From a virus (Duplodnaviria > Heunggongvirae > Uroviricota > Caudoviricetes), in the IMG/VR virus record IMGVR_UViG_3300045988_182320: 39,937 bases of DNA. One strand, given 5' to 3'. The notes beneath the pieces are model-generated. The model made no database searches. It saw only the letters and a program-made list of their open reading frames with translations, and was not told where the DNA came from. The position numbers and the translations under genes were made by a program. Positions 2,727-29,597 of this stretch are shown in pieces (the stretch's first letter is position 1; the number at the start of each line of letters is the position of its first letter).

Positions 2727-3004
2727 ATTCTAATCTCCTCTAACATTTGGTTCAGATATTCGTGTGTGCGCTGCACCGCCTGTGGCGAGCCAGCCGCAGC
2801 CAGGTCTAGCTCGTTTTTGCGTATCTGCTGGCGCACCGTCGCCATGCCCAAGTAATAGACACGGTGAAGCTCGGAGTCGGGCTTCAGTATCTCGTCACGC
2901 AGATCGTCCTCGCTAATATCCAAAAGGACGGACATCTCGGATATCGGAGTCAACGTCTCCGCGAAGTCTTGCACTTTTTTGAGTAATTCCTGAGAAATTT
3001 CCAT
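2723..3004 (-). CDS. Hypothetical small protein
   Basis: 93 aa ORF with ATG start, overlaps neighbours by 4 nt (operon-like coupling). Confidence 0.4.
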   Translation of the reverse strand: MEISQELLKKVQDFAETLTPISEMSVLLDISEDDLRDEILKPDSELHRVYYLGMATVRQQIRKNELDLAAAGSPQAVQRTHEYLNQMLEEIRI

Positions 3005-3488
3005 TGATTCTTAAGCTTTGAGTGTCACAATGAAGGGTATATCCGCCGAAGAGGTCGGCGAAGACCTGCGGGTCGGTGGTGATGATGGTTGACTCGTCAC
3101 GGCTGCCGTAGGTCTGGTTTTGCGAGGTGACGACCGACACGACGTGCTGGTCGTTGCGGAAGAGTGTCACCTTGGAGTGGTTTTGCCCCAGGAACACATC
3201 GTCGAAGCAGGTCTGCATCATGCGCCACAGCTGCACGGTCTTTTTGCTCGCCTTGACATCGAGCAGCATCGTTGCCGACAGGATGCTGCCCGACTGGCGC
3301 ATCAGGCGGAAGCCTCGCAGGAACTCCTCGGAGGTGGAGTAGGAAGACACCCACACATCTGCAGGGCCTATCTGGGAGAGAATCCACTTGATGAGACCGA
3401 GGGTGTGGAGGTGCCGCCCGAAGTAGGCTTGCGTCTGGGCATCGGCGATGGGACGGAGCAGGTCACTGACCTTGACCTTGGTCGGCAT
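2913..3488 (-). CDS. Hypothetical protein
   Basis: 191 aa ORF, ATG at 3486-3488. Confidence 0.4.
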   Translation of the reverse strand: MPTKVKVSDLLRPIADAQTQAYFGRHLHTLGLIKWILSQIGPADVWVSSYSTSEEFLRGFRLMRQSGSILSATMLLDVKASKKTVQLWRMMQTCFDDVFLGQNHSKVTLFRNDQHVVSVVTSQNQTYGSRDESTIITTDPQVFADLFGGYTLHCDTQSLRINGNFSGITQKSARLRGDVDSDIRDVRPFGY

Positions 3489-6057: not shown

Positions 6058-7083
6058 TTATGCGAACTGATTTAAAGCATCCAACACTTGATCTGAGCAG
6101 AAATCCTCGACCTTGGTGTCATCGACAGCAGTGTGCGTGTCGCCACCAGGCTCTCCCTCCAGATCCTTCACTTTATCCTTCAGGTCATCTCTCTCCTTTT
6201 CGAGATTCTTGACCTGAGTCTCTAACTCCTTCTTCTCATCCTTGACCTTCTGAAGCTCTGTGTCTTTGTCGGTCACGGCCTTGGAGTCGGCAGCAATCTT
6301 ATCCTCCAGCTTCTGCATCTGCTCCTGAGAGATGGTGCAGTCCTTGGCTGAATCCTCTGCCTCAATGCCCTCGATGTTGAGGACATTGTTGATGTGAGTC
6401 CATTTTTTAATCATATTAATAATTTTGTTTTGAGATTTATCTTTACCGAAAATTCGGTCGATGAAGCTTGGCTTTTTATCATACCAAGAGTTGACGACCT
6501 CAGGGAGCACCGGAAGGTTGTTGTACTTGATGAAGTCTTGTGTCTGCTCTGTGATGTCAGCAGGTTTGCCATCCATGGACTCATCGACGAGACCCAGTTC
6601 GATGCACTCATCGACGGTGTGCCACTTTGCCTCGGACATCACCTTGACGATGTCCTCGTGCTTCTTGCCCGAGCGATCGCAGTAAACGTTGGCGATGATG
6701 TTGTCGATTTTCTGCTGGTTCTCTTGCTGTTTTTGAAGCTGCTCGATGAGCGAGCCTATCTGCTCCTCGTTGAGCGCAGACCACACAAACTGCTCGGTAG
6801 AGCACTTGTGTACCAGGAGCAAGCTATATTTGCTCATGCGAATCTTGCTGGCACCCATCGCACAGATGGTGGCAGCAGAGGCAGAGAAGCCCGCCTGGAA
6901 GTCAACGGTCACATCGCCATGGGACTTGAACATCTGGCAGATGGCGAGACCTGCGGAGACCTCACCACCCAAGGAGTCGATGGCAACATCGACGTGCTTG
7001 TCTTTGTTAGCCTTGAGAATGTCGCGGACCATGAGTTTTGTCCACGAGCCAATATATCCAGTGATAGAAATTTGGTACTTCAT
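6058..7083 (-). CDS. Prohead protease (ClpP/S14-like) fused to a coiled-coil scaffold-like C-terminus
   Basis: N-terminal IDSLGGEVSAGLAIC...GFSASAATICAMGASKIRMSKYSLLLVH resembles the ClpP Ser/His active-site regions; C-terminal half is K/E/D-rich coiled coil (KVKDEKKELETQVKNLEKERDDLKDKVKDLE). Confidence 0.8.
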   Translation of the reverse strand: MKYQISITGYIGSWTKLMVRDILKANKDKHVDVAIDSLGGEVSAGLAICQMFKSHGDVTVDFQAGFSASAATICAMGASKIRMSKYSLLLVHKCSTEQFVWSALNEEQIGSLIEQLQKQQENQQKIDNIIANVYCDRSGKKHEDIVKVMSEAKWHTVDECIELGLVDESMDGKPADITEQTQDFIKYNNLPVLPEVVNSWYDKKPSFIDRIFGKDKSQNKIINMIKKWTHINNVLNIEGIEAEDSAKDCTISQEQMQKLEDKIAADSKAVTDKDTELQKVKDEKKELETQVKNLEKERDDLKDKVKDLEGEPGGDTHTAVDDTKVEDFCSDQVLDALNQFA

Positions 7084-7106: not shown

Positions 7107-7114
7107 CAAAGATA
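7107..7114 (-). promoter_or_regulatory. Bacteroidota-type -7 promoter box
   Basis: Plus-strand caaagata = minus-strand TAtcTTTG, 24 nt upstream of the protease start codon. Confidence 0.45.
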
Positions 7115-7143
7115 TATAATAATGTATAAGGATAAAAAAACTT

Positions 7144-7563
7144 TTATTGGATGATTTGGAGCGGTTTTATCACGTCAGACCATGTCACGGTATAAGTGAT
7201 GAGCGATGAGTCTGTGTGCGAGCTTGGCATATTTTCGGTGCGAGTGAGCACCGGGAAGGGACGCTGGTCTCTGCCCAGAAGATAGGCGCACCCATCGGCG
7301 GTAGTCACCTTGTAGGCGAGCGGGTGAACCTCTGAGTCTATCTGCTCGCTCGACTTGAAGGTGAGCTTTGAAGTGAAAATGCGAACCTTGGACTCAATTT
7401 TGTCGGTGATTTCACAACTCGACGGCATTTTGCACTTTATCTGCTGGAAGACTGCACTTGCAGGAATGATGCAAAGATTTTTGGCTGGGAAGATGACAGC
7501 CTTGAGGTCATCGGCTCTCACGACCTCAATCTTGATGATGTTTTTGATGTATGACATAAGCAT
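7144..7563 (-). CDS. Hypothetical protein
   Basis: 139 aa, ATG at 7561-7563. Confidence 0.4.
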   Translation of the reverse strand: MLMSYIKNIIKIEVVRADDLKAVIFPAKNLCIIPASAVFQQIKCKMPSSCEITDKIESKVRIFTSKLTFKSSEQIDSEVHPLAYKVTTADGCAYLLGRDQRPFPVLTRTENMPSSHTDSSLITYTVTWSDVIKPLQIIQ

Positions 7564-7642: not shown

Positions 7643-8227
7643 TTAATCTTTGCTAAATCTTGTTGTAGATATTAAATTTACGCCTCTTTTTGCGTGTTGA
7701 TCACGCATTCTGTAGAAACATTGGCGTACGGTATCCTCGTAATCGATGCCAATGCCATGCTGTTCGCACCATGCCGAAATGAGCGATGAAAGCTTGCATG
7801 AGCGGTCGGCGATGTCTTTGAGCGAAGCCCAGAGATCCATCTTGAAGAGGTCGGAAATCATCTCTTTGACGGCACGTCTGGCACGTGGCCCGAGGTAGTT
7901 GTACTCTCGCACAGGCTTAGCCTTGGAGTCAGGCAGCTCGATGGCAAGATACTCTTCGGGATGGGTGAGCCATCGGCTCTGCTCGAACTCCTCGTCGTGG
8001 AAGGTATGCTTGACACTTTGGTGCAGTTGGCTGGCATCAGCCTGCTGCATCTCTTGGATGTTCTCTTGGTCGATAGGCGATAGGTTGACAACGGGAGGTC
8101 TGCTGGTGAACTTGCGGAGCACAGCCACCTCGTTGCCGATGGCAGGGAAGACCACTGGGTTGCCATAAGCTCGGTAAGCCCATTGTCTGATGTGGGTAGG
8201 AACTTTGATGTAAACAATTGGATTCAT
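7643..8227 (-). CDS. Hypothetical protein
   Basis: Track ORF begins with TTG at 8239; first ATG (MNPIVYIK...) at 8225-8227, with a -7 box at 8248-8255. Confidence 0.45.
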   Translation of the reverse strand: MNPIVYIKVPTHIRQWAYRAYGNPVVFPAIGNEVAVLRKFTSRPPVVNLSPIDQENIQEMQQADASQLHQSVKHTFHDEEFEQSRWLTHPEEYLAIELPDSKAKPVREYNYLGPRARRAVKEMISDLFKMDLWASLKDIADRSCKLSSLISAWCEQHGIGIDYEDTVRQCFYRMRDQHAKRGVNLISTTRFSKD

Positions 8228-8247
8228 ATAGCTATGCAATTTTCGTG

Positions 8248-8255
8248 CAAAGATA
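8248..8255 (-). promoter_or_regulatory. Bacteroidota-type -7 promoter box
   Basis: caaagata on plus strand (TAtcTTTG on minus), about 21 nt upstream of ATG 8227. Confidence 0.45.
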
Positions 8256-8369
8256 CAAAGAAAATTTGAAATAACTAACGATAATCGGTAAAAACTAACT
8301 TTTATCAGTAAATTTGGTGTGATATAATTTCGTCCGAAAAGTTTGTATTTTTGTATCGTACAAACAAGG

Positions 8370-8620
8370 CTCTGTAACTAGCTGATAATCAATACTATTT
8401 TTGTGATACAATTTTCTGATACAGAAATTGTAACTCTTTAGCTTTTGTAACTTGGGGTTTTGTCGAGGTCGAAGACCTGTAGGAGAAGGGGCTTGTTACA
8501 AACTTGAAAAACTTTGTAACCGAGTTGTAACGCAACTTTGTAAACATCGGCATGGCGGCTTAACTCACTCTTTTTTAGTTATTTACATCTTTTGCTAACA
8601 TTATGTTACAGAGTTACAAA
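8370..8620. repeat. Iteron-like repeat cluster, candidate replication origin
   Basis: At least 8 copies of TTGTAAC / GTTACAA in about 250 bp (8371-8377, 8428-8434, 8445-8451, 8495-8501, 8514-8520, 8525-8531, 8605-8610, 8613-8619), including the inverted pair gttacaaa(8495-8502)/tttgtaac(8513-8520); next to the primase-helicase gene. Confidence 0.45.
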
Positions 8621-8764
8621 GGATTTGTATAAAATAAAAGAAAGGGGTGTGGGGAAAACGATGGCACGGGGCGTGAAGGAGGTTAGAAAAGGCCCATCGA
8701 GACACCCAGGACACCCCCATTGGCCAATGGAGGGGTAGCGAGACGAAACATCGCCCATGGCAAC

Positions 8765-8800
8765 GAAAAAAGGGAGCGACGGCCAATGCGCATCGCTCCC
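8765..8800 (-). terminator. Rho-independent terminator downstream of the primase-helicase gene
   Basis: Perfect 8-bp GC-rich stem gggagcga (8772-8779) / tcgctccc (8793-8800), followed on the minus strand by tttttt (plus aaaaaa 8766-8771). Confidence 0.55.
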
Positions 8801-8981
8801 TCGTAACATGGGAAAAGAATTATAAATCAGCAAAAATCTGCCTATGAAATCAGCCCTCGTCTGCTTGCAAAAATAGTGAAAAATTGCTTGAAAATTTAGC
8901 CGAAAATATTTGCATAATTCAGATATTTTTTGTACCTTTGCACTATAACTTGGGGCTATCTATTCTATTATATATGGATGG

Positions 8982-11936
8982 CTAGAAAGGTTTATCACTA
9001 TCTTTATCTACCTTGCTCCAGTCAATGGTAGATTGATATTCACCCCCAGCTGCAGGGACATCAGCCTTGGCAGCTTGTTTATCCTCTTTTTTATCATCAC
9101 TCTTCTTGCTTCGGAGATAGATCATCTCGACAGGGCTGCCGTCTGGGTTAGCTGGATCGCGTCTGATGATGCGGTGCTGGCTGTTGCAGAGATCAGCTGG
9201 GTTCAGCTCTTGGATGTATGGACACAGCTCGACGAAGGCTCTGAGCTTTTTGGTGAAGCTCTGTGTGGTCGCCTTGTTGATGCCTGAGAACTGCTTGAAG
9301 TCATTGAACGCACGCTCTCTCACGATAAATGTATCGAGTCGCTCGCTCTCTTCTGAGAAGTAGGATGCAGCCCAGTCTTCGAAGTTGACACCCATGTCGG
9401 CCTTGAACTTGCGCTTGATGATGTTATCCATCGGTGGCATGATCTTGATAGGTTCGCCAGCCAAGGAGAGATAGAAACGACAGCACTGCAGGAAAAAGTT
9501 GATGTCAGCATTCCACTCATCCTCAGTGTATGTCTTTGAGAAGAGATCTTCGTCGAAGTCATCACGGATGCTTCGGGTCTCTTGGTAATCATTCTCCTCT
9601 GTGCGCTGATGGTAATAGTCGGAGAACACCATATAGAGCAGTCTCGCCTCTGAGGAAGGGTCGAAGTCTGCCGGCACGTAGTTGGTGGTGAAGGCAATCT
9701 TCGGGCTATCCTCGAAAGGAATTGTGAAGCTCTGGTTGTTCTTTGGGTTGACTGTCATATCTGAAGTAATGTTATCGTAAAATAAACCTGTGTTGAGATA
9801 GCGGTCACAGTCATCGAGGAGCAGCATCTGGGTGTGCTGTGTCACCTGATCGAAGACGTGTGGGTTGTCCATCAGCTTAGGGTTGCGTCCGGAAAGCTTG
9901 ACTGTTTTCATCAGCAGTGAAAGCGTCTTGAAGAAGAAACTCTTACCGGAACGGCCGTTGCACTCGTTGTTTTCACCAATCTTGTTGTCCATCGCCATCG
10001 GAGCCCAAGCCCTGGATGGTGCCTTGTAATGATGGAGCATGTAGCCGAAGGTGAAAATCTTGTTTATCAAGTTCTGCTTTTGCTCTTGTATCTCGTTGTC
10101 GGCAAGCCCTTCGCCAGCGATGTCGAAGAGGTGTGCCTTGTGGTATGCCTCTTTCTCCTCGATGCTCTTGTCCTCAAAAGCATACTCTAGCTCTTTGCGC
10201 CAGTAGGTGCGAGAGGCGTTGATGAGATAGCCGAAGAAGTGGGACTTCACGTTCTTGACCTCGATGTCGAACTTCGGCCTGCCATCCTCGTCGATGGTTC
10301 GTGTGATGGAGAACATGTCATCCAACTTCTTGAAGTTGTGGTTGATGACATTCTCTTGCCAAACATAGTTTTTGAGCGAGCTGCCCTCACGCTGGTACTC
10401 GTTTAGTCCATCTTTGGTGACCTCGACGCTGACACGAGGGAAGAAGAACAACTGCGAGTGGTTGGTGTAGCTGGTGAAGTCTAGCGTAATCTCTTGGAGC
10501 GAGTCGAGCGCCGATGCCGACAGCTTTGGCGTGTTGAGCACCAAGTTAAGGATGTCACGCTTCTCAGCTCTCTCGATGACCCATTGGCGGCAGAACTCAC
10601 GGATGTCTCTCGTGGTGATGAGCTTGACGATGTTGCCCGTGATGCGAACATATTTGGTGATGGTCGAGTTGTCATCGTGCAAGGTATAGAAACCATTGAG
10701 ACGAAGAAAATTGTAGAGGCACGCCGTGTCGATGTAGTGGTCCCAGGTGTTAGCCTTTTTGTTGAGCTTGCTCACCCAAAATCGGGCTGGCATCGCCAGT
10801 GTCATGAGGTTGCGGAAGTCTTTGCGAGTATTGCGCAGCTCCATCCAGTCTCGCAGGTCTTTGCGCCCCTTGCCACGGTTGTCGTGGTAGGTGCGAAGCC
10901 AAGAAGGCAACCATATCGTATGGATGTCGATGAAGCGCAGGGCAAGCTCTGTGCCCTTGGCGATGCCCGTCTCGTCGATGTCGGGTATATTGTAGAGCAC
11001 CTCGACATACTTCATAATCTCTCGGTACTCCTCGTCGCTGAGCTTGTAGGTCTCGGAGTTGAACCATAACGGGTTGTAGCCCATGGAACGGCAGCAGAGA
11101 CTGTCACGCTCGCCACTGCAGATGAAAGCCTCGGGAAGTTTCTTCTCCTTGTAAGGCTTGGACTCGTCTGTGTTGGTCTTGTTGTACTCAGCCTCTTCAC
11201 GGCGGTTGAACTCGTGATAGGCAGCCTTCAGCTCAGCTAGGCCATTGATGTATTGCTTAGGCTTGATGCCGTCTGGGGTGTAAGAGAATCGCCACTGCTT
11301 TTGGTAGTTGAGAGGCTCATATATCTTGTAGAACTTAACCTCAGGCTTGTCGCCTTCAGCTGGGCGAACCAAGCACTCACGCATAAAGATAGGGTAGTGC
11401 TCGTTGCTGTGCTTAATCTTGACCTTGCGGTCTTTGACGTATCCTATCCACTTGGCGGAATGCCAGTTGAGTGCATCGACGTGCTCTTGCTTGACGTTTG
11501 GACCCAGTACCTTCAGTTCATCCTCGGTGAACTTCTCGTTCAGCTCGAAAGGTCTGGTACCATCTTTCTCGTTGATGGTGGCATCACGCTCTGTGAATGT
11601 AGGCTTGTTGACCTCTTTTTTGAGTTCATCGCTAACGTTGTATTCGGAAGCCAGTCTCAGGATGGCATCAGGAAAGCGGTCGATGCACTTCTCTCTCATG
11701 TAGAGGTCGATAGGTGACTCGGCAGAGCCGTCGCCGCCGAAGTCAGTCACTCGCCAGCAGTCTTTGAACTTTTTGAGACTGCAGGAAGGTGTTTTCTCAT
11801 TGCGGATGGCAAAGTGCTTTTTAGGCGTGCCAGTCGTGCAATATTTCTGGACGCATTCTTTTGCGTCCGGGTATAGTGAGATGATGATGTCGAGACCATC
11901 ATCTGTAGCTTGATAAATTTGTTCTGCTTTGATCAT
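8982..11936 (-). CDS. DNA primase-helicase (TOPRIM-like N-terminal region plus SF3/D5-like P-loop NTPase)
   Basis: About 984 aa from ATG 11934-11936 (track ORF starts at TTG 11966); Walker A NGRSGKSF and Walker B-like LLLDDCD in the C-terminal third; SGERD...DIDETG TOPRIM-like acidic motifs upstream. Confidence 0.7.
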   Translation of the reverse strand: MIKAEQIYQATDDGLDIIISLYPDAKECVQKYCTTGTPKKHFAIRNEKTPSCSLKKFKDCWRVTDFGGDGSAESPIDLYMREKCIDRFPDAILRLASEYNVSDELKKEVNKPTFTERDATINEKDGTRPFELNEKFTEDELKVLGPNVKQEHVDALNWHSAKWIGYVKDRKVKIKHSNEHYPIFMRECLVRPAEGDKPEVKFYKIYEPLNYQKQWRFSYTPDGIKPKQYINGLAELKAAYHEFNRREEAEYNKTNTDESKPYKEKKLPEAFICSGERDSLCCRSMGYNPLWFNSETYKLSDEEYREIMKYVEVLYNIPDIDETGIAKGTELALRFIDIHTIWLPSWLRTYHDNRGKGRKDLRDWMELRNTRKDFRNLMTLAMPARFWVSKLNKKANTWDHYIDTACLYNFLRLNGFYTLHDDNSTITKYVRITGNIVKLITTRDIREFCRQWVIERAEKRDILNLVLNTPKLSASALDSLQEITLDFTSYTNHSQLFFFPRVSVEVTKDGLNEYQREGSSLKNYVWQENVINHNFKKLDDMFSITRTIDEDGRPKFDIEVKNVKSHFFGYLINASRTYWRKELEYAFEDKSIEEKEAYHKAHLFDIAGEGLADNEIQEQKQNLINKIFTFGYMLHHYKAPSRAWAPMAMDNKIGENNECNGRSGKSFFFKTLSLLMKTVKLSGRNPKLMDNPHVFDQVTQHTQMLLLDDCDRYLNTGLFYDNITSDMTVNPKNNQSFTIPFEDSPKIAFTTNYVPADFDPSSEARLLYMVFSDYYHQRTEENDYQETRSIRDDFDEDLFSKTYTEDEWNADINFFLQCCRFYLSLAGEPIKIMPPMDNIIKRKFKADMGVNFEDWAASYFSEESERLDTFIVRERAFNDFKQFSGINKATTQSFTKKLRAFVELCPYIQELNPADLCNSQHRIIRRDPANPDGSPVEMIYLRSKKSDDKKEDKQAAKADVPAAGGEYQSTIDWSKVDKDSDKPF

Positions 11937-12933: not shown

Positions 12934-13311
12934 ATGTTTAATGGTCAGATAATCAGAAAGTTAATGTCGGATGCTGGCTTAACTAAAAAAGAGTTTGAAA
13001 GACGTATGTTCGGTAGTAAATCGACCGACCTCAACCATTTGGAAAAAGCGAAGAATCTTCGCAGTGACACTCTCGAACGTCTGCGTGAGGTGTTGAAGTG
13101 CTCTATGGATGACTTCTTTACAGCACCCTCATGGGCTGAGAACGGAAAGGGGACAGTCGTAGGCTCTAACAATGTGCTGTCAACAGTAGCCATCGGCAAC
13201 GAAGTGATGGAAGCCCAATATCTCAAGGAGTTGCTCTTGGAGAAGGACAAACGCATCAGCACTTTGGAAAATTATATCAAGCTTCTGGAGACTAACTTAA
13301 ATAAGGACTAA
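12934..13311 (+). CDS. XRE/Cro-CI-type helix-turn-helix transcriptional regulator (candidate repressor)
   Basis: 125 aa; N-terminal IIRKLMSDAGLTKKEFERRMFGS...SDTLERLREVL matches an HTH_XRE-like helix-turn-helix; divergent from the early operon and upstream of the integrase. Confidence 0.65.
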   Translation: MFNGQIIRKLMSDAGLTKKEFERRMFGSKSTDLNHLEKAKNLRSDTLERLREVLKCSMDDFFTAPSWAENGKGTVVGSNNVLSTVAIGNEVMEAQYLKELLLEKDKRISTLENYIKLLETNLNKD

Positions 13312-13535: not shown

Positions 13536-14699
13536 ATGACTGCAAAAGAAATTGATTTTTTGAGCTCGCGTGAAATAGTAGGTTTCACGCTGCCTGTGTT
13601 GCATACCAAGGGCGGTTACTGGTATGTTGACTTTACTGCCTTTGACCCTGTTTCGGGTCGGATGAAGCGCAAGAAATATATGCTTAATAGGTACAAGACT
13701 GACCACAAGAAGCGTATGATGGGTACCTTGCTTATCCACAATATCACGGCAAAATTGACCGCTGGATGGAATCCTTGGGTGAATGCCGACAAGTCGAGAC
13801 AATTCACCGAAATACCAATTATCTTTAGTCGTTATCGTGATTATATTAAGTCGATGACCGACAAAAAGTCGATGAAGGAAAAGACCTCTATCGACTACCT
13901 CAGCCGCCTCAAGACTCTGGAGTCTTTCATCACTGAGTGCAAGAGTGTCAAATATGCCTATCAGATTGACCGTGCCTTCGCCATCGACTTCTTAGACCAC
14001 CTGATGTATGACCGTGATGTGAGTGCTACCACAAGAAACAACTATCGCTCTTGGCTTGTCTCCTTCGGCACTTGGCTTATGGATAGAAAATATATCAGCG
14101 AGAACCCTGCCATCGACATCAGAAACATCGCTCAGAAGGAGAAGTTCAGAGACCCTTTGACCGAGGGCGCGCTTAAGAAGCTGAAGACTTATCTCTATGA
14201 TAACAACAGACATTTTCTCTTGGCTTGCCTCTTTGAATATTATACCTTTATCCGACCGAATGAGTTGACGCAGATAAGAATCAAAGATGTGTCGATTGCT
14301 GACCAGACGGTCTTTATCAGTTCTGCCATCAGCAAGAACCGTAAGGACGGACTTGTGGCATTGAACGATGAAATCTTGAAGCTCATGATAGAGCTGAAGA
14401 TATTTGAGCATCCGGGACATTGTTTTATCTTTGGCAAGGGGTTGAAGCCTGGTGAGGAGCGAGCACCTTATAACCAACTGAGAGTAGAGTGGGGCAAGAT
14501 GCGAGATGCTATTGGGTTTCCGAAGGAGTATCAGTTTTATAGCCTGAAGGACACTGGCATCAGGGATTTGGCGAACGCACAGGGTATCGTGGTCGCCAAG
14601 GATCAGGCACGCCACTCTGATATATCTGTGACGAATCGATATATCAAGAACCAGATGAAAGTGAACGAGGAGACCAAGCACTTCAAAGGTGGGCTTTAG
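13536..14699 (+). CDS. int: Tyrosine site-specific integrase
   Basis: 387 aa; C-terminal ARHSDISVTNRYI (His and catalytic Tyr box) and upstream HCFIFGKGL region typical of phage tyrosine recombinases; stop tag at 14697-14699. Confidence 0.85.
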   Translation: MTAKEIDFLSSREIVGFTLPVLHTKGGYWYVDFTAFDPVSGRMKRKKYMLNRYKTDHKKRMMGTLLIHNITAKLTAGWNPWVNADKSRQFTEIPIIFSRYRDYIKSMTDKKSMKEKTSIDYLSRLKTLESFITECKSVKYAYQIDRAFAIDFLDHLMYDRDVSATTRNNYRSWLVSFGTWLMDRKYISENPAIDIRNIAQKEKFRDPLTEGALKKLKTYLYDNNRHFLLACLFEYYTFIRPNELTQIRIKDVSIADQTVFISSAISKNRKDGLVALNDEILKLMIELKIFEHPGHCFIFGKGLKPGEERAPYNQLRVEWGKMRDAIGFPKEYQFYSLKDTGIRDLANAQGIVVAKDQARHSDISVTNRYIKNQMKVNEETKHFKGGL

Positions 14700-21035: not shown

Positions 21036-21057
21036 AATTGAATATTTTATTTTATGG

Positions 21058-21065
21058 CAAAGGTA
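21058..21065 (-). promoter_or_regulatory. Bacteroidota-type -7 promoter box for the tape-measure-like gene
   Basis: caaaggta on plus strand (TAccTTTG on minus), 23 nt upstream of ATG 21035. Confidence 0.45.
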
Positions 21066-21080
21066 ATAAGGAGGAAAATA

Positions 21081-21119
21081 TAATAAAAATACGAGACCGT
21101 ATGTATTGCGGTCTCGTAT
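21081..21119 (-). terminator. Rho-independent terminator
   Basis: Perfect 11-bp stem atacgagaccg (21089-21099) / cggtctcgtat (21109-21119), 9-nt loop, followed on the minus strand by tttttatta. Confidence 0.6.
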
Positions 21120-21461
21120 TTACTTGGTTATCTCTTGCTCTTTTTTAAAGAACTCGTATGCAAGATTGTTTGCATCCCAAACAAGATATTTCTTGTTGGT
21201 GTTTCTGAGTGTCTGTTTATCACCTGTTATGGAGTTTGCTATCGTGACGCAGAAGAATCTGCCTCGCTTTACGATTTCGGTTGCCGTATTGTTTGGCGAT
21301 GCCAGTCTTATAGGCTCGTCAAAATTCTCATCAAAAGTATCAAACAATGGTTCGGAAGCCACTGTGGCTGGGCAAGAACTATTGCCAAGCTTGTCGAGAC
21401 CTTTGAGGAGTGCAACTGTTATAATCGCTAGTATCCAGCATCCAAATATAGTCGTAATCAT
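21120..21461 (-). CDS. Small membrane protein (hypothetical)
   Basis: Start placed at ATG 21459-21461 (MITTIFGCWILAIITVALL..., N-terminal hydrophobic helix); the track ORF extends further upstream across a -7 box at 21491-21498. Confidence 0.4.
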   Translation of the reverse strand: MITTIFGCWILAIITVALLKGLDKLGNSSCPATVASEPLFDTFDENFDEPIRLASPNNTATEIVKRGRFFCVTIANSITGDKQTLRNTNKKYLVWDANNLAYEFFKKEQEITK

Positions 21462-21490
21462 AATTTGCAAGTTTATTATTATCTTTGTTG

Positions 21491-21498
21491 CAAATTTA
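21491..21498 (-). promoter_or_regulatory. Bacteroidota-type -7 promoter box
   Basis: caaattta on plus strand (TAaaTTTG on minus), 30 nt upstream of ATG 21461. Confidence 0.4.
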
Positions 21499-21683
21499 AT
21501 AATAATATTTGGAATATGCAAGTATTTTGTGTTAAATCTTTGATTTGTTTTGCGGTATGGTGGAAAAATATTATATTTGCAGTGGCAATTTAATTTTAGA
21601 AAGTATGAATAAAGATTTTGCTTTAATATTGGTAAACATAATATGCGCCTTAACGGCATTTGTTTGTATGATAATCACTATTG

Positions 21684-22040
21684 TTATTTCATTAGTGAGA
21701 TTATAATAGTAATACACATAGATGCGATTGTAATAATCGTGCAAATGATATTGATATATTCTTTGTATTCTTTCAGAAGTGTCAGTCTCTCCTGTCTTCT
21801 CTTCTGTTTGTTATAGCCTTTCTTGGCAGCATTCTCCCCTTGTGGTGTCAGCTTATAATAAGCTTCTCCCCACTCATAAACAAGTCCCTCGTCTTGAAGT
21901 GATTGTAGAACATCGTATGGCTCAATGTCATATCCATACGTATCATTTATAGCACTGTGTACATCGTCTTTGTTAGGACTACCTTCTAAGAACTGGCTTA
22001 AAATGAAATCTGCGATTTCTATTTGCTTTTTAGTCATCAT
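21684..22040 (-). CDS. Hypothetical tail-anchored membrane protein
   Basis: About 118 aa from ATG (MMTKKQIEIADF...), C-terminal hydrophobic helix IICTIITIASMCITIIISL; the track ORF starts with GTG at 22124 and would run through an upstream hairpin. Confidence 0.4.
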   Translation of the reverse strand: MMTKKQIEIADFILSQFLEGSPNKDDVHSAINDTYGYDIEPYDVLQSLQDEGLVYEWGEAYYKLTPQGENAAKKGYNKQKRRQERLTLLKEYKEYINIICTIITIASMCITIIISLMK

Positions 22041-22092
22041 AATCAAATAAAAACGGCTCGTGCATCGGGAGGGCAGTCCTTCAGCACGAGCC
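22041..22092 (-). terminator. Hairpin + T-run (terminator or leader attenuator)
   Basis: Perfect 9-bp stem ggctcgtgc (22055-22063) / gcacgagcc (22084-22092), 20-nt loop, followed on the minus strand by tttttatttg, just before ATG 22040. Confidence 0.5.
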
Positions 22093-22175
22093 ATTAACAG
22101 CTGTATATCTTTATGTCTTGCCACTCATGAGACCTGCCCGAATCATGTTTGACATCATTGTCTTTAAATATGGTG

Positions 22176-22183
22176 CAAAGATA
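22176..22183 (-). promoter_or_regulatory. Bacteroidota-type -7 promoter box
   Basis: caaagata on plus strand (TAtcTTTG on minus), upstream of the 22055-22092 hairpin and of ATG 22040. Confidence 0.4.
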
Positions 22184-22223
22184 ACGCTTTTATCTGAAAG
22201 CACCAAATGATTTTACGAAAACT

Positions 22224-22835
22224 TTATTTCACCACCTCTATGTATCTCGAGTAATCAATCTTGGAGTGGGGATTGTGGCTGACTATCTGCACCTGATAGC
22301 CCTTGGTGCCCCATCGCCACCAGAGGAACTTGTGGCGGTAGGTGCGGCTCACGATGGTCGTCAGGCTGTCTCGAGACGAGTACTGGCACTCTCGCTTGGG
22401 GATGTCGATATGGAGGGAGAGCCATTGGTCTCGGTAGGTGTAGATGGAATCGGGGATGCCGGAACCAGCCACGGCGGCGGTCGGTTCGGGCGTGAGATAG
22501 ACCGTATCGGCGGTGGTTGACGAAGCTGTGTGGATAGACTGCACATCTTTGAGCCGCACTTTGAGGTCTTTGATGAGCTTGGTATCGGCGAGGTGGAGCT
22601 TTTGCAGCTCGTCGTATTTCGACTGAAGGGCGTTGAATATGGCGACATTGAGAGTGTCTCTCACGTTGGCATATTCAATGTCGTAGTTGAGGTTGGCAAC
22701 GTTGTAGCTCTGTCGGTCGAGGTCTGCCTGAAGCTGCTCGCACTTGTTGGCGGAGTGTATGAATGCGACTGCGGTCACGATGAGCAGGGCTGCCAGAAGC
22801 TGGATGATAATCTTGGGTGTAATCTTTTTTGTCAT
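22224..22835 (-). CDS. Membrane-anchored coiled-coil protein (possible spanin or lysis accessory)
   Basis: Start placed at ATG 22833-22835 (MTKKITPKIIIQLLAALLIVTAVAFIHS, N-terminal TM) followed by a coiled-coil-like region; immediately downstream of the amidase. Confidence 0.3.
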   Translation of the reverse strand: MTKKITPKIIIQLLAALLIVTAVAFIHSANKCEQLQADLDRQSYNVANLNYDIEYANVRDTLNVAIFNALQSKYDELQKLHLADTKLIKDLKVRLKDVQSIHTASSTTADTVYLTPEPTAAVAGSGIPDSIYTYRDQWLSLHIDIPKRECQYSSRDSLTTIVSRTYRHKFLWWRWGTKGYQVQIVSHNPHSKIDYSRYIEVVK

Positions 22836-22864
22836 TGTCTTTTTGAAAATGATTGGTGAGTGAG

Positions 22865-23290
22865 TTATGCGATGTCTTTGTATTCGTCGATGGCATTGAA
22901 GCAAGGACACATCTTCTTCCATTTGGACTTGTCCTTGCCCCAGATGTCACGATGGCCCATTATCTGGGCATCTGGGAATTGTTGCTTCAGTTTGTGGAGT
23001 AGCAAAACGAGGGCGTCTTTTTGCTCTGGTGTGCGGTTGTCGATAGCCTTGCCCTTAGCGTCGATGCCACCGATATAGGCGACGTTGATGGCTGTGGAGT
23101 TGTAGCCCTGCACGCCGTTGCTCACCTTTTCGATGGCTAGGAGTTGGTGGATGCCGCCGTTTGGGGCGATGACGTAGTGATAACCTGGATTGGTCCAGCC
23201 CTTGCGGCGGAACTCTGCCTTGAGGTCGTCGATGGACTGGCTTTGCGACCCTGCGGTGCAGTGAACGAAAATGCGTTTAATCTGTCTCAT
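22865..23290 (-). CDS. N-acetylmuramoyl-L-alanine amidase, T7-lysozyme/PGRP-like (endolysin)
   Basis: IFVHCTAG...GWTNPGYHYVI...GYNSTAINVAYIGGIDAKGK...TPEQ...HRDI...KMCPCF closely parallels the conserved blocks of T7 lysozyme (Amidase_2 family); start placed at ATG 23288-23290. Confidence 0.9.
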   Translation of the reverse strand: MRQIKRIFVHCTAGSQSQSIDDLKAEFRRKGWTNPGYHYVIAPNGGIHQLLAIEKVSNGVQGYNSTAINVAYIGGIDAKGKAIDNRTPEQKDALVLLLHKLKQQFPDAQIMGHRDIWGKDKSKWKKMCPCFNAIDEYKDIA

Positions 23291-23531
23291 TATTTTGCTT
23301 GTTATGATTGAACAATTTGTTTTTGATGTTGTTGAACTTGGCATCGATGGCGATGGCTACGCCGAAGATGGAGCCGGCATACATGAGCGACTGGGCAAAG
23401 TACCAGAGCACATTGTCGGTGACATCACGAGCCTGGGAGGTGAAGTAACTGATGTAAACCAGTATGATGGCGAGGAGGAGCACGGCGATGGCTGAGCCGT
23501 ATTGTATCCATTCTTTAGTATTTCTCTGCAT
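23277..23531 (-). CDS. Putative holin
   Basis: 84 aa from ATG 23529-23531 (MQRNTKEW...), two predicted TM helices and a charged C-terminal tail; overlaps the amidase start by 14 nt. Confidence 0.5.
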   Translation of the reverse strand: MQRNTKEWIQYGSAIAVLLLAIILVYISYFTSQARDVTDNVLWYFAQSLMYAGSIFGVAIAIDAKFNNIKNKLFNHNKQNNETD

Positions 23532-23558
23532 GGTGAATCTTGTTTTTGTTTTACAGTG

Positions 23559-23566
23559 CAAAGATA
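23559..23566 (-). promoter_or_regulatory. Bacteroidota-type -7 promoter box for the lysis genes
   Basis: caaagata on plus strand (TAtcTTTG on minus), 28 nt upstream of holin ATG 23531. Confidence 0.45.
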
Positions 23567-23580
23567 AGAAGGGTAGGGTG

Positions 23581-23617
23581 ATAATAAAAATACGAGACCG
23601 CCCTAACGATCTCGTAT
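23581..23617 (-). terminator. Rho-independent terminator
   Basis: Stem atacgaga (23590-23597) / tctcgtat (23610-23617), 12-nt loop, followed on the minus strand by ttttt; shares an identical 20-mer with the terminator at 21080-21099. Confidence 0.5.
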
Positions 23618-23631
23618 TATATGTTTAACTG

Positions 23632-24039
23632 TTAGACCTCTCTTGAGAGAATCTCCTTGGCTATCTCTTTGGCCTCTTTGCGCCACGACTGATAAGCCTC
23701 GAACTCTGCCTCGTGAGTCTCGTCGCCATCGCCACGGTTGGCTAGGATGGCCTCTACCTGGTTTTGGCTGTATCGGGTGCGAACCAAACCAGCGGTGAAA
23801 TCGTCGTAGGTGGCTGCGGTCGCCTGAATCTTGGTCGAGCCATCAGGCTCTGTGCCCTCATAGCTGTAAGCAGTGACACCCTCGGAGTTTTCATCTTCTG
23901 ACTGCTCTGAGGTATCGGAAGAGCCTGTAGCGGCCTCAGGGTGATAGTTTTCAACTTTCTGCTCACCAGTGTAGAGCAGATAATGGTTATCGTCATATTT
24001 GACGAAGCTCTTGCGAGCTAGATAATACTTCTTGTTCAT
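23632..24039 (-). CDS. Hypothetical acidic protein co-transcribed downstream of the reverse transcriptase
   Basis: 135 aa, ATG at 24037-24039, only 6 nt after the RT stop; D/E-rich, not Avd-like. Confidence 0.45.
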   Translation of the reverse strand: MNKKYYLARKSFVKYDDNHYLLYTGEQKVENYHPEAATGSSDTSEQSEDENSEGVTAYSYEGTEPDGSTKIQATAATYDDFTAGLVRTRYSQNQVEAILANRGDGDETHEAEFEAYQSWRKEAKEIAKEILSREV

Positions 24040-24045
24040 AATTGA

Positions 24046-25620
24046 TCACGTGAATTTATAGAACTTCTTTTTGAATTTATTGTGAAGCTCTGCGACCACG
24101 GTGGAGAAGGGTAGCTCATCACGACAGAAGTCGTTGAGGGCTTGGTCTATCAAGATCTTGGAGCCTGTATAGAGGTAGTGCTCCAGAGGTTGCCATACCT
24201 CGGTGCCGTCTGGCTCCAGGTGGTCGATGATGCGATAGCGTAGGGAGAGGCGCTTCTTGGGCACCTCTTTGGTGACCATGTGGGTGGAGCCGTCCGGGGC
24301 GGTCTCCTCTTGCTGGATGGTCTCCTTCTCTATCACCGAGTCATCGACCTTGTAGTCTATCACTTGAACGAGGAACTTGTTCTCGTCCTGACCCTCACGG
24401 CAGATGATGTCCTCGATGGACTGCTGCTGTGATTTCTCCATACCGTCAAAAGGCACGCGCGCACGGCGAGCCTTGACGAGTTTACCGAATCTTTCCATAC
24501 CGATTTTCTTATATAAGTTTTTAGAGTTTGCGTGGATGCCCAGACCTAGGCGAGAGGCTGCCTTGAGCTGTATCTGGCGGTCTGTGAAGCCCGCCTTGCG
24601 TAAGTTGGCGATCTGTCTGCAGAGGTCGTGCTTGAACCGCTTGCGCAACAGGGCGTGGTCGGCGTAGATGATCTGACCGCAGAAGTCGATGCCATCGCAG
24701 GTGCGGTGGATACCCCAAGACTTATTGATGGATAGGTGCCAGTCACGGGCGAGGTGCATCACGGCAAGCTCTGCCATCAGCCTGAGGAACACCTTATCCT
24801 CGTGGAGGATGTAGATGTTGTCCATGAAGCGGTAATAATGGCGAAGACCTTGGCGGCAGAAGCGCTCGAACCTATCGTTGAGCGACTTCACTCCCCCGCA
24901 TAGCAGTTGAGCTTGCTGCTGAGTGCGACAGGTAACGAGCATGTCGATCACGTAGCGAGCCTGCCAGTAACGGAACTTGTCGGTGTCTTGGAGAATGTCG
25001 AAGCATCGGAGTGCCAGGTAATCGAAGCGGGCGAGGAAGAGCTGACCCAAGAGTTGGGCGAGCTTGACGCCGAGCACGATGCCTGGATTGAAGCTATCGA
25101 CCACCTCGTCGATGAAGGCGAGGAGCTTGCGGTCTTTGATCTTGCGGCGATATTCACTTTTGAGAAGAGCGTGGTCTATGCTCTGAAAATAATGGTGAAT
25201 ATCCATGGGCAAGCAGTAGAAGGTATCTTGCTGTGGCGAGTTGAAGATGTCTCGCTTGACAAGATTATAGAAATAATGGGTGCCCTTGCCCTTGGAACCA
25301 GCCGGACTGTGGCTGTAGAGTGTCTTGCGAAGGTTATCCTCTACAGGTTGCAGGGCAGCGTGCTGGATGACGTGGTCGATAACGGGCAGCTTGTTGACTT
25401 GGCGATGTTTTGGATAGTCGATATCTTTGGCGACATAGGCTGAGGTATGCCAAGTTTGTTGGGTGTAAGCATCGAGCATGCGTCCGATGTTATGGTCTAG
25501 GTTTGCCTCGAATTTTTGGACCGCACGGCGAGACATCTTTTGTCGGGCGTAGTCATAGAATGCCCGACGAAAGTTGTCTAGTGTCTCGACCTGTGGCGAT
25601 ATGTTGCCAAACCTTTTCAT
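24046..25620 (-). CDS. Reverse transcriptase of a diversity-generating retroelement
   Basis: RT motif A LPMDIHHYFQSIDH; motif B-like GIVLGVKLAQLLGQLFL; motif C position reads YYRFMDNIYIL (non-canonical); primer-grip-like DFCGQII; adjacent to the TR/VR pair. Start placed at first ATG 25618-25620; the track ORF begins with GTG at 25689. Confidence 0.8.
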   Translation of the reverse strand: MKRFGNISPQVETLDNFRRAFYDYARQKMSRRAVQKFEANLDHNIGRMLDAYTQQTWHTSAYVAKDIDYPKHRQVNKLPVIDHVIQHAALQPVEDNLRKTLYSHSPAGSKGKGTHYFYNLVKRDIFNSPQQDTFYCLPMDIHHYFQSIDHALLKSEYRRKIKDRKLLAFIDEVVDSFNPGIVLGVKLAQLLGQLFLARFDYLALRCFDILQDTDKFRYWQARYVIDMLVTCRTQQQAQLLCGGVKSLNDRFERFCRQGLRHYYRFMDNIYILHEDKVFLRLMAELAVMHLARDWHLSINKSWGIHRTCDGIDFCGQIIYADHALLRKRFKHDLCRQIANLRKAGFTDRQIQLKAASRLGLGIHANSKNLYKKIGMERFGKLVKARRARVPFDGMEKSQQQSIEDIICREGQDENKFLVQVIDYKVDDSVIEKETIQQEETAPDGSTHMVTKEVPKKRLSLRYRIIDHLEPDGTEVWQPLEHYLYTGSKILIDQALNDFCRDELPFSTVVAELHNKFKKKFYKFT

Positions 25621-25828
25621 AAGCGGTGTAATGTCTGTGTTGAACGGTGTATAAACTGTGTATAGTCTGAATCGTCTGCTTTTGTACACTTGATAACCTT
25701 CGACCGGATGACCGTGTTGTCATCATCTACCAGCTGTCTTATTAATGTGTATGTATCGCCATGGGGCGAGGATTGACCCTGTAATCTCGAAGTGGGAGCA
25801 AACGACCCACGAAGAGATATGTCTGTAA

Positions 25829-25950
25829 GTTGAGGGCGGCGCCGTAGTTCACATTGGCATTCGAGACAGCATTGTTCACGTTGAGCGTCGAAAGACCGCA
25901 TTGACCACCATTGTTAGCGTTAGCACCACGAAGGCAGACACGAAAACCGG
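25829..25950 (-). repeat. DGR template repeat (TR)
   Basis: 122-nt intergenic copy of the target gene 3' region; 110/122 identical to VR; every mismatch is a plus-strand T in TR, i.e. a coding-strand adenine; the same-frame translation carries Asn (AAC) where the VR varies. Confidence 0.85.
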
Positions 25951-26188: not shown

Positions 26189-27661
26189 TTAGGCCGCCTC
26201 GTAATACACGGGTTCAACGGACCACTCGGATGCTGCTTCGCAGAGGGCGGCGCCGTAGTTCACATAGGCAAACGAGACAGCACCGTTCACGTTGAGCGCC
26301 GAAAGACCGCAAGGACCACCATTGTCAGCGCTAGCACCACGAAGGCAGACACGAAAACCGGATGTAGCGCCGCTAGTATTCCAGAAATAGCTAGTCCAAT
26401 AGGTTGACTCGGATGCGCCCGTGGCGGTCGGGAAGTTCTCCAGATGCTCCATCGAGAGCGTCTTGATAAAGCCTTCGCCCTTGGTCGGCGAGGTGCTGTA
26501 AGCCACCATGCCATCGGCGGAACCTATCGTCCACGTGCCGTAGATGGACGGTGCCACGAGATGGGTCACGGAAGTGTCCTCGTTGCAACGCACCTGCTCG
26601 TCATCCATGTGTCGCCACAATAAGCCGAAGCCATTTTTGTAGCCGAAGAAGGATGGTATCTTGGCGGTATAGACCACGGTGCCATCGTCTTTTTTGACCT
26701 CGTAGCTCGCCTCGCCGCAAGCGTCGCCCAGCTCGATGCCGGCAGACATCGGCACGATAGGGCGATAGCCGTTGTAACCACCCCAATCAGGCATCTGTGT
26801 CACGCCAGCTCCGAGACCACCCTGGTAGAGACCGTTGGCATCTTTTTGGCTGTTGATGGCATCCTGGTCGTAGTGGGTGCCGAAGATGACCCCGAAGAGC
26901 ACGGCGATGGCAGAGGTGTGGCGCATGGTGGTGCAGAGCCAGCCTGTACCATTCTTGCGGGCTGCGGCACGCCAGTATTCGGTAGTCTGGTTGGTGGCAG
27001 CCTTGCCCAGCATGGTGCGGTTGGTGTTATCTAACGTTGAGTCGTTGTTGCCGCCTCGGTAGTCTGTGCCCTCGTTGATGTAGCTCACCAGCTTGCCTGT
27101 GCTGCGCTCTAGCGTGGCGAAGCCAGCGGCGGAGATGCTGCCCACAGGTATCTTGTAGTTGTACTCGCCAGGTATTGGCGTAGGGCTGACCATCTCGTAA
27201 TGGAGTCTGCCCACGGTCTTGATGACCATGTACCACTCCTTGCCCCAGCCCCACTGGTAATGCCCCTCTGAGCCATCGAGCTTGGCTGTCTCGCCGGTGG
27301 CATACTTGTGGTGGTCTTTGGAGTCGAGCTTGCGACGGGAGTGGTCATTCTTGACCAGATAACAGCCCAGACCCAGCTCCGTTGGTAGGGTCTGCAGTAA
27401 CTCTAGCGAGCCCACATAAGTGGCGGCTTTAGGGGTTGCATTGTCGAGGTTCCACACTCGACCACACCAAGGATGCTGTCCCATTTGGACGGCGCTTTTG
27501 AGCGACATCTGCTCAGACCTGCCGGATTTTTTGTCGAAGACCTCGACAATCTTGTCAGTGGCGCTCATGTCTGACTGTGGGAGGTCGTCAACCTGTTGAC
27601 CTCCATCGAAAGCGGCTATGATAGCCTTGAGCTTACTCTCTTCTTCTGATGTTAATGCCAT
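26189..27661 (-). CDS. DGR target protein (putative receptor-binding tail fibre) with C-terminal variable region
   Basis: About 490 aa from ATG 27659-27661 (MALTSEEES...; track ORF starts with TTG at 27709); C-terminus ...GFRVCLRGASADNGGPCGLSALNVNGAVSFAYVNYGAAL is encoded by the VR; stop tta at 26189-26191. Confidence 0.8.
   Translation of the reverse strand: MALTSEEESKLKAIIAAFDGGQQVDDLPQSDMSATDKIVEVFDKKSGRSEQMSLKSAVQMGQHPWCGRVWNLDNATPKAATYVGSLELLQTLPTELGLGCYLVKNDHSRRKLDSKDHHKYATGETAKLDGSEGHYQWGWGKEWYMVIKTVGRLHYEMVSPTPIPGEYNYKIPVGSISAAGFATLERSTGKLVSYINEGTDYRGGNNDSTLDNTNRTMLGKAATNQTTEYWRAAARKNGTGWLCTTMRHTSAIAVLFGVIFGTHYDQDAINSQKDANGLYQGGLGAGVTQMPDWGGYNGYRPIVPMSAGIELGDACGEASYEVKKDDGTVVYTAKIPSFFGYKNGFGLLWRHMDDEQVRCNEDTSVTHLVAPSIYGTWTIGSADGMVAYSTSPTKGEGFIKTLSMEHLENFPTATGASESTYWTSYFWNTSGATSGFRVCLRGASADNGGPCGLSALNVNGAVSFAYVNYGAALCEAASEWSVEPVYYEAA
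26240..26361 (-). repeat. DGR variable repeat (VR)
   Basis: 122 nt inside the last ~57 codons of the target gene; differs from TR only at 12 positions corresponding to TR adenines (TR 25830, 25831, 25855, 25860, 25861, 25872, 25873, 25888, 25901, 25902, 25915, 25920). Confidence 0.85.
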
Positions 27662-27683
27662 AATAAAAATTATATTTAATCGA

Positions 27684-29297: not shown

Positions 29298-29300
29298 AGG

Positions 29301-29597
29301 CTATGATTTTAAGATGTCCTGTTTCCACTCGGCAATCTTGGCGAAGACAGCCCCTGCCTCTTCATCGCTCAGCACGGCAGTGTTGATGCGACATGAGAGG
29401 TTGGTATCCATAAAGCTGATGTATCCAGCACCGCTCTCGGAGGCTGGTGCATCATCTTTGGACTCTGTACGTTTATAGACCTCACCGGAAAAAGAGACCT
29501 TGTCATCTCGCTTTGTCTTGGTGAACTTGACGAAAACGCCTGTAACAACCTCAATCTCCTGGATGTCGGTTGTCGTAACTGTTGACTCTACCTTCAT
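29301..29597 (-). CDS. Hypothetical protein
   Basis: 98 aa, ATG at 29595-29597. Confidence 0.4.
   Translation of the reverse strand: MKVESTVTTTDIQEIEVVTGVFVKFTKTKRDDKVSFSGEVYKRTESKDDAPASESGAGYISFMDTNLSCRINTAVLSDEEAGAVFAKIAEWKQDILKS

Follow-up and report, generated by a model that had tools for sequence, protein, structure and literature searches.

The window analyzed here is a 39,937-nucleotide stretch of viral DNA (Caudoviricetes; IMG/VR record IMGVR_UViG_3300045988_182320) from a temperate siphophage of gut Bacteroidota, in which nearly all genes lie on the minus strand. The leftward early operon ends with a 984-amino-acid (aa) open reading frame (ORF; 8982–11936, minus strand, ATG at 11936), whose stop codon is separated from the ATG of a 194-aa ORF of an orphan family, hereafter gene X (7643–8227, minus strand), by approximately 742–753 bp (8228–8981). 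Gene X is the first gene before gene Y (139 aa, 7144–7563), which is followed by a ClpP-type head protease gene (6058–7083) and, beyond it, a probable capsid gene. A preliminary description of the window had placed a candidate iteron-type replication origin in a noncoding gap beside a primase-helicase gene. The gap is real and bounded by the two minus-strand ORFs, and neither a tRNA (tRNA scan) nor an Rfam family (Rfam scan) was found in it. Within this gap, the segment 8342–8631 appears from its sequence to be a genuine array of approximately 14 sites for a phage-encoded, sequence-specific DNA-binding protein, located at the junction of the early and late genes.

The closest cultured relative of the phage is Bacteroides phage BT-TP2, with a helicase identity of 67%, and the closest genomic copies of gene X occur in a metagenome-assembled genome of Segatella copri. 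A near-identity search of GenBank phages gave no match; a protein-level search recovered BT-TP2 and the marine Polaribacter phage Leef_1 as relatives.

Organization of the repeat array

The 14 sites are TTGTA[A/T]C-like 7-mers in both orientations, counted within 8340–8630 by allowing one mismatch to TTGTA[A/T]C while retaining the GTA core. By the start of each 7-mer, the plus-strand sites are TTGTATT (8343), TTGTATC (8351), CTGTAAC (8372), exact TTGTAAC (8428, 8445, 8514, and 8525), TTGTAAA (8538), and TTGTATA (8625), and the minus-strand sites are TTGTATC (8405), CTGTATC (8418), TTGTAAC (8495), CTGTAAC (8605), and TTGTAAC (8613). Convergent sites enclose a 58-bp spacer (8546–8603; GC content, 34%) whose minus strand is rich in A: those at 8514, 8525, and 8538 point right and those at 8605 and 8613 point left. 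Read in minus-strand order, the array thus consists of the pair 8613/8605, the spacer, the sites 8538, 8525, and 8514 at steps of 10–13 bp, and then sites of mixed orientation.

The density of these sites is far above expectation. The exact 7-mer TTGTAAC occurs 10 times on both strands of the 39.9-kb window (whole-window shuffle expectation, 2.5), six of them within 8428–8619, and eight of the 13 window copies of the 6-mer core TGTAAC fall inside 300 bp. Elsewhere in the window the degenerate site occurs 79 times per 39.6 kb, corresponding to approximately 0.6 expected per 290 bp versus the 14 observed. In 1000 dinucleotide-preserving shuffles of the gap, none reached the count of its most frequent 7-mer (six copies; shuffle maximum, five) or 6-mer (TACAAA, 11 copies; shuffle maximum, eight), so composition does not explain the cluster. 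In an unbiased scan of the whole window, the top-ranking 7-mer cluster was that of GTTACAA at 8428, and no extra site clusters were found at other promoters in the window.

The clustering of short repeats noted in the preliminary description is therefore non-random and lies where it was reported, although some details need adjustment. Its count of at least eight copies of TTGTAAC/GTTACAA holds for the 6-mer TGTAAC (eight) but not for the exact 7-mer (six). Among the individual repeats quoted, tttgtaac at 8513–8520 and gttacaaa at 8495–8502 are present as given, whereas 8524–8531 reads gttgtaac rather than tttgtaac. The duplicates of TGATACA (8404–8410 and 8417–8423) and TTTGTAT (8342–8348 and 8350–8356) were both recovered.

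Conservation of the array and lineage-specific motifs

Relatives were collected by helicase, giving 80 viral contigs with helicase identities from 100% down to 54%, and by gene X, where an alignment scan of 185,579 species genomes gave 51 prophage loci. All but a few incomplete contigs of the former carry an equivalent gap with an array, and the prophage loci likewise have their most pronounced repeat cluster immediately before gene X. Of all 137 related loci with enough upstream sequence, 130 have the top cluster of the locus no more than 750 bp upstream of this gene, with BT-TP2 and Leef_1 among the relatives, and no second repeat cluster was found beside any helicase gene in the related loci scanned. 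In the clade with helicases at least 90% identical (eight relatives aligned), the sites and a block at the array end are conserved while the intervening DNA drifts. The preliminary description had made its proposal depend on conservation of the repeats in close relatives, and the array is retained there. No description of this element was found in the literature searched.

The repeat motif differs among lineages. It is TTTGTAAC in the window clade, L047, and BT-TP2 (L081); TTTGTAA[C/T] in L051; TTTGTTAC in L045, L064, and L071; TTTGTGAT in the L055 group; TTTGTGAC in L069; and TTTGTATC in L074, and TTGTAGAA is a further lineage motif among the relatives. The loci found by gene X add TGTAGAA (up to 15 copies), TGTAG[T/C]N, TGTAGGC, TGTAGAT, and TGTTGAA. 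In Leef_1, the strongest cluster of the whole genome is TTTTGTAATC, with 7–12 copies at 29142–29450; a terminator and a CCCCACACCCC tract come before it, and directly downstream lies Leef1_39, which a hidden Markov model (E 1e-7) and its structure (the sole match in BFVD) identify as a gene X homolog. The layout is shared more widely than the motif: one or two sites, an A-rich spacer of approximately 60 bp, and two to four sites of opposite orientation approximately 10–13 bp apart recur in L045, L047, L048, L051, L055, L069, L071, L074, BT-TP2, and Leef_1, and PH2-type relatives have repeat runs with a period of 9–11 bp. A constant layout with a lineage-specific motif is the behavior of a protein–DNA recognition pair.

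These data bear on the possibility that the region holds no dedicated element, the repeats being a by-product of AT-rich DNA and overlapping promoter motifs, or arm-type integrase sites of an attP. The motif does include TTTG, a component of Bacteroidetes promoters (TTTG at −33, TAnnTTTG at −7), promoter patterns are enriched in the window, and an integrase gene lies 5 kb away. However, the local shuffles stay below the observed counts, within each lineage the 3′ half of the motif, its variable part, changes in a coherent way, the TGTAGAA motifs of the PH2 lineage lack TTTG, and the sites are better conserved than the surrounding DNA. The prophage junction also lies elsewhere: the attP is probably at approximately 13311, because many IMG/VR relatives of 43–45 kb end at the equivalent position, between a Cro/C1-type helix-turn-helix repressor gene (12934–13311, plus strand) and the tyrosine integrase gene (13536–14699, plus strand). 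The shuffles and comparative data have already largely refuted the absence of a dedicated element, which we consider scarcely credible.

The upstream primase-helicase and the origin reading

The 984-aa protein gave no sequence match in Pfam, NCBIfam, or PDB (the last with single sequence and profile), and only structure prediction placed it, the best match of the predicted structure being the SaPI5 primase-helicase. Its sequence contains a Toprim-like segment (ICSGERD ... NIPDIDETG) and superfamily 3 (SF3) helicase motifs (Walker A, GRSGKS; Walker B, LLLDD; motif C, FTTN), and some of its homologs carry PF19263. The predicted fold places it among D5-like SF3 primase-helicases and shows a winged helix at the C-terminus, which agrees with the gene identity given in the preliminary description and makes the SaPI5 enzyme its closest solved relative. 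The SaPI5 primase-helicase is a self-loading initiator that binds short iterons just downstream of its own gene (PMC9371898). Since the SaPI Rep domain binds iterons likewise, the primase-helicase label is justified and the idea of an origin has a precise precedent.

An SF3-type replication origin, possibly doubling as an early/late control region, is our leading but tentative reading of the array; SF3 initiator-helicases that use origins of this kind include SaPI Rep/PriRep, P4 alpha, papillomavirus E1, and the SV40 T antigen. Such an origin would be expected to hold at least six short (5–8 bp) repeats unique in the genome, and 14 are found in 290 bp; opposed repeats around an A/T-rich region are present, with the same layout in 10 lineages; and the upstream gene is predicted to encode a cognate SF3 helicase with a winged-helix domain. 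The combination of a lineage-changing motif with a fixed layout is as expected for initiator–origin specificity. The C-terminal winged helix of the primase-helicase would recognize the TTGTA[A/T]C repeats, the opposed sets at 8514–8544 and 8605–8619 would bracket the 58-bp A/T-rich spacer, which may melt, and the helicase would load itself and then prime with its own Toprim primase. Since array and gene X are inherited together, the product of this gene would probably serve as a co-factor or as a second protein on the sites, and the complex probably also governs how active the gene X/head-operon promoter is, a dual role known from viral origins within early/late control regions.

Staphylococcal pathogenicity islands (SaPIs) provide the nearest comparison. 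SaPI origins have 6–12 penta- or hexanucleotide iterons immediately downstream of rep, split around an AT-rich center with opposite directions on each side and bound by the C-terminal winged helix of Rep, which gives island-specific iteron recognition; in SaPI5 the helicase is fused to a primase (PMC9371898). The window-type arrays resemble these in having 8–15 sites of 7–8 bp in both orientations, convergent on an A-rich spacer of approximately 60 bp, and in lying downstream of a gene for a putative SF3-like initiator with a C-terminal winged helix. However, approximately 350 bp with a terminator and a GC-rich block separate the helicase stop codon from the array here, the array of some relatives is kilobases from a helicase gene or without an adjacent one, and the orphan gene X, always beside the array, has no SaPI counterpart. 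No sequence homology is detectable between the 984-aa protein and SaPI Rep.

Satellite phage P4 offers a further parallel. Its alpha protein unites a primase and an SF3 helicase with a DNA-binding domain at the C-terminus, all on a single chain. The P4 origin is composed of 8-bp repeats that run in either direction, and another repeat region, crr, is found near the alpha gene; an origin thus need not abut its initiator gene. P4 differs in having two separate repeat regions rather than one cluster per genome, shares no sequence similarity with the present system, and to our knowledge has no equivalent of gene X. The origins of papillomaviruses and polyomaviruses (E1/E2, large T antigen), which lie in early/late control regions, are an analogy only, as these are eukaryotic viruses, and the repeat number is larger in the phage array.

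Neighboring genes of the array in relatives

Several observations weigh against an origin served by the adjacent helicase. Downstream, gene X adjoins the array in Leef_1 as in every one of the 137 loci, and it is the upstream gene that varies. A helicase of the window type lies within 1.6 kb upstream in 83 of the 137 loci; a DnaG-type fusion takes this place within 1.6 kb in 31 loci and beyond 1.6 kb in five; 16 have no upstream helicase within at least 4 kb, with tape-measure and tail genes instead; and the upstream sequence is too short for a decision in two. The helicase is therefore more than 1.6 kb off or missing upstream (4–8 kb) in 21 of the 137. In Leef_1, the helicase homolog (21049–23901) is 5.2 kb and approximately 11 genes away from the array, and even in the window the array begins approximately 350 bp past the helicase stop codon, behind a terminator. 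Two unrelated primase fusions, moreover, stand upstream of arrays that share a TTGTA/TGT core. Finally, only a few independent lineages underlie the covariation of motif and helicase described below, and shared ancestry and physical linkage confound it. The cumulative GC skew, which the preliminary description had suggested as a check, changes monotonically along the window, and in the complete genomes of BT-TP2 and Leef_1 it does not switch at the array. AT skew likewise has no feature at the array in the window or these two genomes. The skew cannot decide the matter because nearly all genes are on one strand and the genomes are small.

The DnaG-type fusion is a protein of 1066 aa with the Pfam domains Zn_ribbon_DnaG, DNAG_N, and Toprim_2 and a different P-loop domain, and it has no detectable similarity to the window helicase (hhalign probability <1%). 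In L086 (2335–5535) and related Phocaeicola/Bacteroides prophages, it replaces the D5-like primase-helicase at the same position, followed by a TGTAGAA array of up to 15 copies and then by gene X. The occurrence of a TTGTA/TGT core beside unrelated primases is more simply explained by one conserved binder, for example gene X. Other lineages (L098, L103, L118–L121, L125, L127, and L134) have tape-measure and tail protein genes upstream and no helicase in 6–8 kb; on the short contigs available for lineages with this order of tail genes, array, and gene X, the helicase gene was not located.

Where the interval between helicase and array holds extra ORFs, as in L064, L074, and BT-TP2, the array stays beside gene X. 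The inserts are a methyltransferase-like ORF in L064 (4668–5204), three ORFs in L074 (1–900 after the helicase stop codon), and gp7 in BT-TP2 (L081, 4592–4906), and in L137 three ORFs occupy 4.6 kb between primase and array. The interval looks like a hot spot for accessory gene insertion.

Across the 137 loci and Leef_1, the unit of array, gene X, gene Y, protease gene, and capsid gene is unbroken and hence ancient, whereas helicase adjacency is not. The argument that the repeats mark an origin through their position beside a replication initiator gene fails for this reason, since the constant neighbor is gene X and the upstream neighbor varies. What stands of the candidate iteron-type origin is that the kind of element is plausible and the repeats are real and conserved; the adjacency on which it was based is not the conserved relation. 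Repeats beside a replication gene are thus insufficient to call an origin, the conserved partner here being the gene on the other side.

Possible control of the head operon and candidate binding proteins

The constancy of gene X speaks for a close rival reading, possible though doubtful, in which the array is an operator or enhancer rather than an origin, and the gene X protein, bound to the repeats before its own promoter, or another phage regulator would turn the head/late operon on or off. The array remains with gene X, gene Y, the protease gene, and the capsid gene whatever lies upstream, replication modules are exchanged while gene X stays with the head module, and gene X is thus an adjacent gene of conserved linkage, as an operator would have. 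A conserved terminator and a C-rich block would insulate the region from upstream transcription, the array ends 90–100 bp from a conserved −7 box, and its last site overlaps a conserved block. The persistence of the TGT/TTGTA core beside unrelated primases and a near-invariant helix of gene X, TVRQxYYRxR, which is replaced by KMRxQRMR in lineages with TTTGT[G/T] motifs, point the same way. Arrays of many 7–11-bp direct and inverted repeats upstream of a regulated promoter and beside the regulator gene are known from omega of pSM19035, ParR-parC, and TP901-1 Alt, and the runs with a 9–11 bp period in PH2-type relatives resemble them. However, those arrays are contiguous and overlap the core promoter, whereas the sites here are irregular over approximately 300 bp and end approximately 90 bp from the −7 box. 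A set of 8–15 opposed sites over approximately 300 bp, at −100 to −400 and around an A/T spacer, would be unusual for the control of a bacterial promoter, and no further site clusters accompany the other promoters of the window.

DNA binding by gene X is itself weakly indicated, which also counts against its acting on an operator. The predicted structure is compact and globular, and no ribbon-helix-helix or other recognized regulator fold was found in it; a ribbon-helix-helix reading of the N-terminus was rejected, as the model of the monomer has the first strand paired internally. BT-TP2 and Leef_1 share TTGTAA with the window, yet differ from it widely in the X protein and its putative recognition helix, and, conversely, X proteins that are 91–93% identical (L106 vs L111 and L115) stand behind different motif sets.

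The helicase is the other candidate binder. The window phage, L047, BT-TP2, and Leef_1 all have a TTGTAA[C/T] motif and a helicase wing GRI[I/V], while the identity of their gene X to that of the window is approximately 43% in L047, 24% in BT-TP2, and below 25% in Leef_1, with different C-terminal helices. More broadly, a wing RI[I/V/L] pairs with TTGTAA/TTGTAT, RIQ with TTTGTG/TTTGTT, and RIS with TTTGTATC, although the independent changes are few and gene X also co-varies in part with the motif. In the few lineages available, the motif seems to track the C-terminal domain of the helicase better than gene X, which is not decisive. The natural recombinant L106 is instructive: its gene X is 91–93% identical to those of L111 and L115, whereas its primase and array follow L097. 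The breakpoint is approximately 70 bp upstream of the gene X ATG, between the array and the gene X promoter, so that the array moved with the upstream primase module and not with gene X. Module boundaries therefore exist on both sides of the array. Because independent changes are few and the array is physically linked to both neighbors, none of these arguments is decisive in the choice between gene X and the helicase.

The two functions could also be joined. The array and the orphan gene X may form a previously undescribed two-part module common to prophages of gut Bacteroidales and Helgolandviridae-like phages of marine Flavobacteriia, in which a new family of DNA-binding proteins would assemble on 8–15 lineage-specific repeats at the head of the structural operon and couple origin firing, by whatever primase-helicase a given phage has, to the switch-on of late genes, a single element thus acting as origin and late switch; we regard this proposal as rather unlikely. 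Roles other than an origin or a gene X operator are, taken jointly, likewise improbable. With a cis element of approximately 300 bp, a lineage-specific code, and two candidate binders, questions about the origin and the early-to-late switch become directly testable. If the array is a true origin, it would provide a portable replicon and specificity determinants for genetic tools in Bacteroidota, and would explain how co-resident related prophages avoid cross-talk.

Possible packaging site

The array borders the structural module on its 5′ side and in some relatives comes right after the last tail gene, as a genome end would; this position, together with the multiple short repeats, which resemble the binding sites of terminase small subunits as known from lambda cosB and SPP1 pac, would also suit a packaging site (cos or pac) recognized by a small terminase-like protein. 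However, the weakly supported large-terminase candidate (499–2100; PHROG E 1e-4), a 209-aa gene, and a gene with a weak match to HNH-like endonucleases (2913–3488; PHROG E 4e-5) are 5–8 kb off, so that no terminase gene adjoins the array. Gene X, by its predicted structure, does not have a typical small-terminase fold. A better candidate for cos would be the 186-bp gap at 2727–2912, because the HNH-like gene, the gap, the 209-aa ORF (which overlaps the next gene by 4 bp), and the terminase candidate around it form an HK97-like arrangement. Almost no fetched contig ends at the array while many end at approximately 13311, the exception being L007, which ends within the array region, approximately 470 bp past the stop codon of the helicase gene. 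For Leef_1, PhageTerm indicated 3′ cos ends (PMC8776804), and its record starts approximately 8 kb from the array, at a position that may or may not be the cos site. The distance of the terminase and HNH genes, the location of the contig ends, and the cos of Leef_1 make a packaging site very improbable.

Other elements of the gap

Downstream of the primase-helicase gene, a putative intrinsic terminator of the early/replication operon was read from the sequence at 8766–8800 on the minus strand, consisting of GGGAGCGA, a loop, and TCGCTCCC followed by TTTTTT. The stem and T-run are kept in eight relatives, with G:U-compatible changes, and equivalent hairpins occur 3′ of the upstream gene in L047, L049, L051, L086, and Leef_1. 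A scanner for E. coli-type promoters and terminators, uninformative for a Bacteroidota element, missed this terminator because its loop is 13 nt.

Between the terminator and the array lies a G+C-rich block (8640–8765, minus strand) with a GC content of 60%, C-rich on the transcribed strand, which ends in CCCCACACCCC (8644–8654, minus strand) just before the first array site. The sequence of the block is variable, and the C-rich tract beside the array is retained in relatives and Leef_1. The block may be a termination or insulation zone, and the CCCCACACCCC tract, common to the window phage and Leef_1 (at approximately 29100) despite a helicase identity of approximately 36%, could be a Rho-utilization-like or R-loop-prone segment.

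At the other end of the array, a block GATACAAAAATACAAACTTTTCGGACGAAATTATATCACACC (8317–8358, minus strand) overlaps the last two sites and is nearly invariant in the clade with helicases at least 90% identical; its counterparts are TTACAAAATTACAGAAATTTCGGACGGAATTATATCAGC in L047 and L049 and TTACAGAATTACAGAATTTTG in Leef_1. An AT-rich leader of 89 bp follows (8228–8316, minus strand), with a GC content of 26% at 8229–8316. It contains the putative −7 box of the gene X promoter, TATCTTTG (8248–8255, minus strand), a consensus match approximately 20 nt before the ATG that is kept in relatives. One copy of TTGTATC (8252–8258) overlaps this box, while the main array lies 90–380 bp upstream. The box TATCTTTG(C) stands approximately 20–25 nt upstream of both gene X (8248–8255) and the head protease gene (approximately 7108–7115) on the minus strand, so that the head module may have several promoters of similar build.

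A pattern search also found a near-consensus, promoter-like element of the Bacteroidetes type, TTTG-N20-TACCTTTG, at 8909–8940 on the plus strand, which is directed into the primase-helicase gene from its 3′ end and is hence antisense to it; the pattern has six matches in the window versus 0.69 expected. This block is almost invariant within the same clade, and a conserved antisense or divergent transcript may start at this candidate promoter. Nearby, an insertion of approximately 47 nt (approximately 8835–8907) is missing in L004, L005, L012, L020, L024, L040, and L070 and overlaps a 23-bp tandem duplication (8862–8884/8885–8907). A possible small-RNA unit extending from a TAttTTTG box (8868–8875) to the terminator was rejected, since it lies in or beside this insertion, which most relatives of the clade lack.

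Remainder of the window

The window is apparently short of approximately 3.9 kb from a genome of approximately 43.9 kb. Tail genes and a diversity-generating retroelement (DGR) fill its remainder. Among the prophages of Bacteroidaceae and Prevotellaceae in the human gut, temperate siphophages that resemble BT-TP2 and carry a DGR rank with the most prevalent (PMC12694917). The DGR of the window comprises a reverse transcriptase gene (24046–25689, minus strand), a template repeat (25832–25950), and a variable repeat (26243–26361) that is 92% identical to the template and lies within the 3′ end of a tail-protein gene (26189–27709, minus strand).

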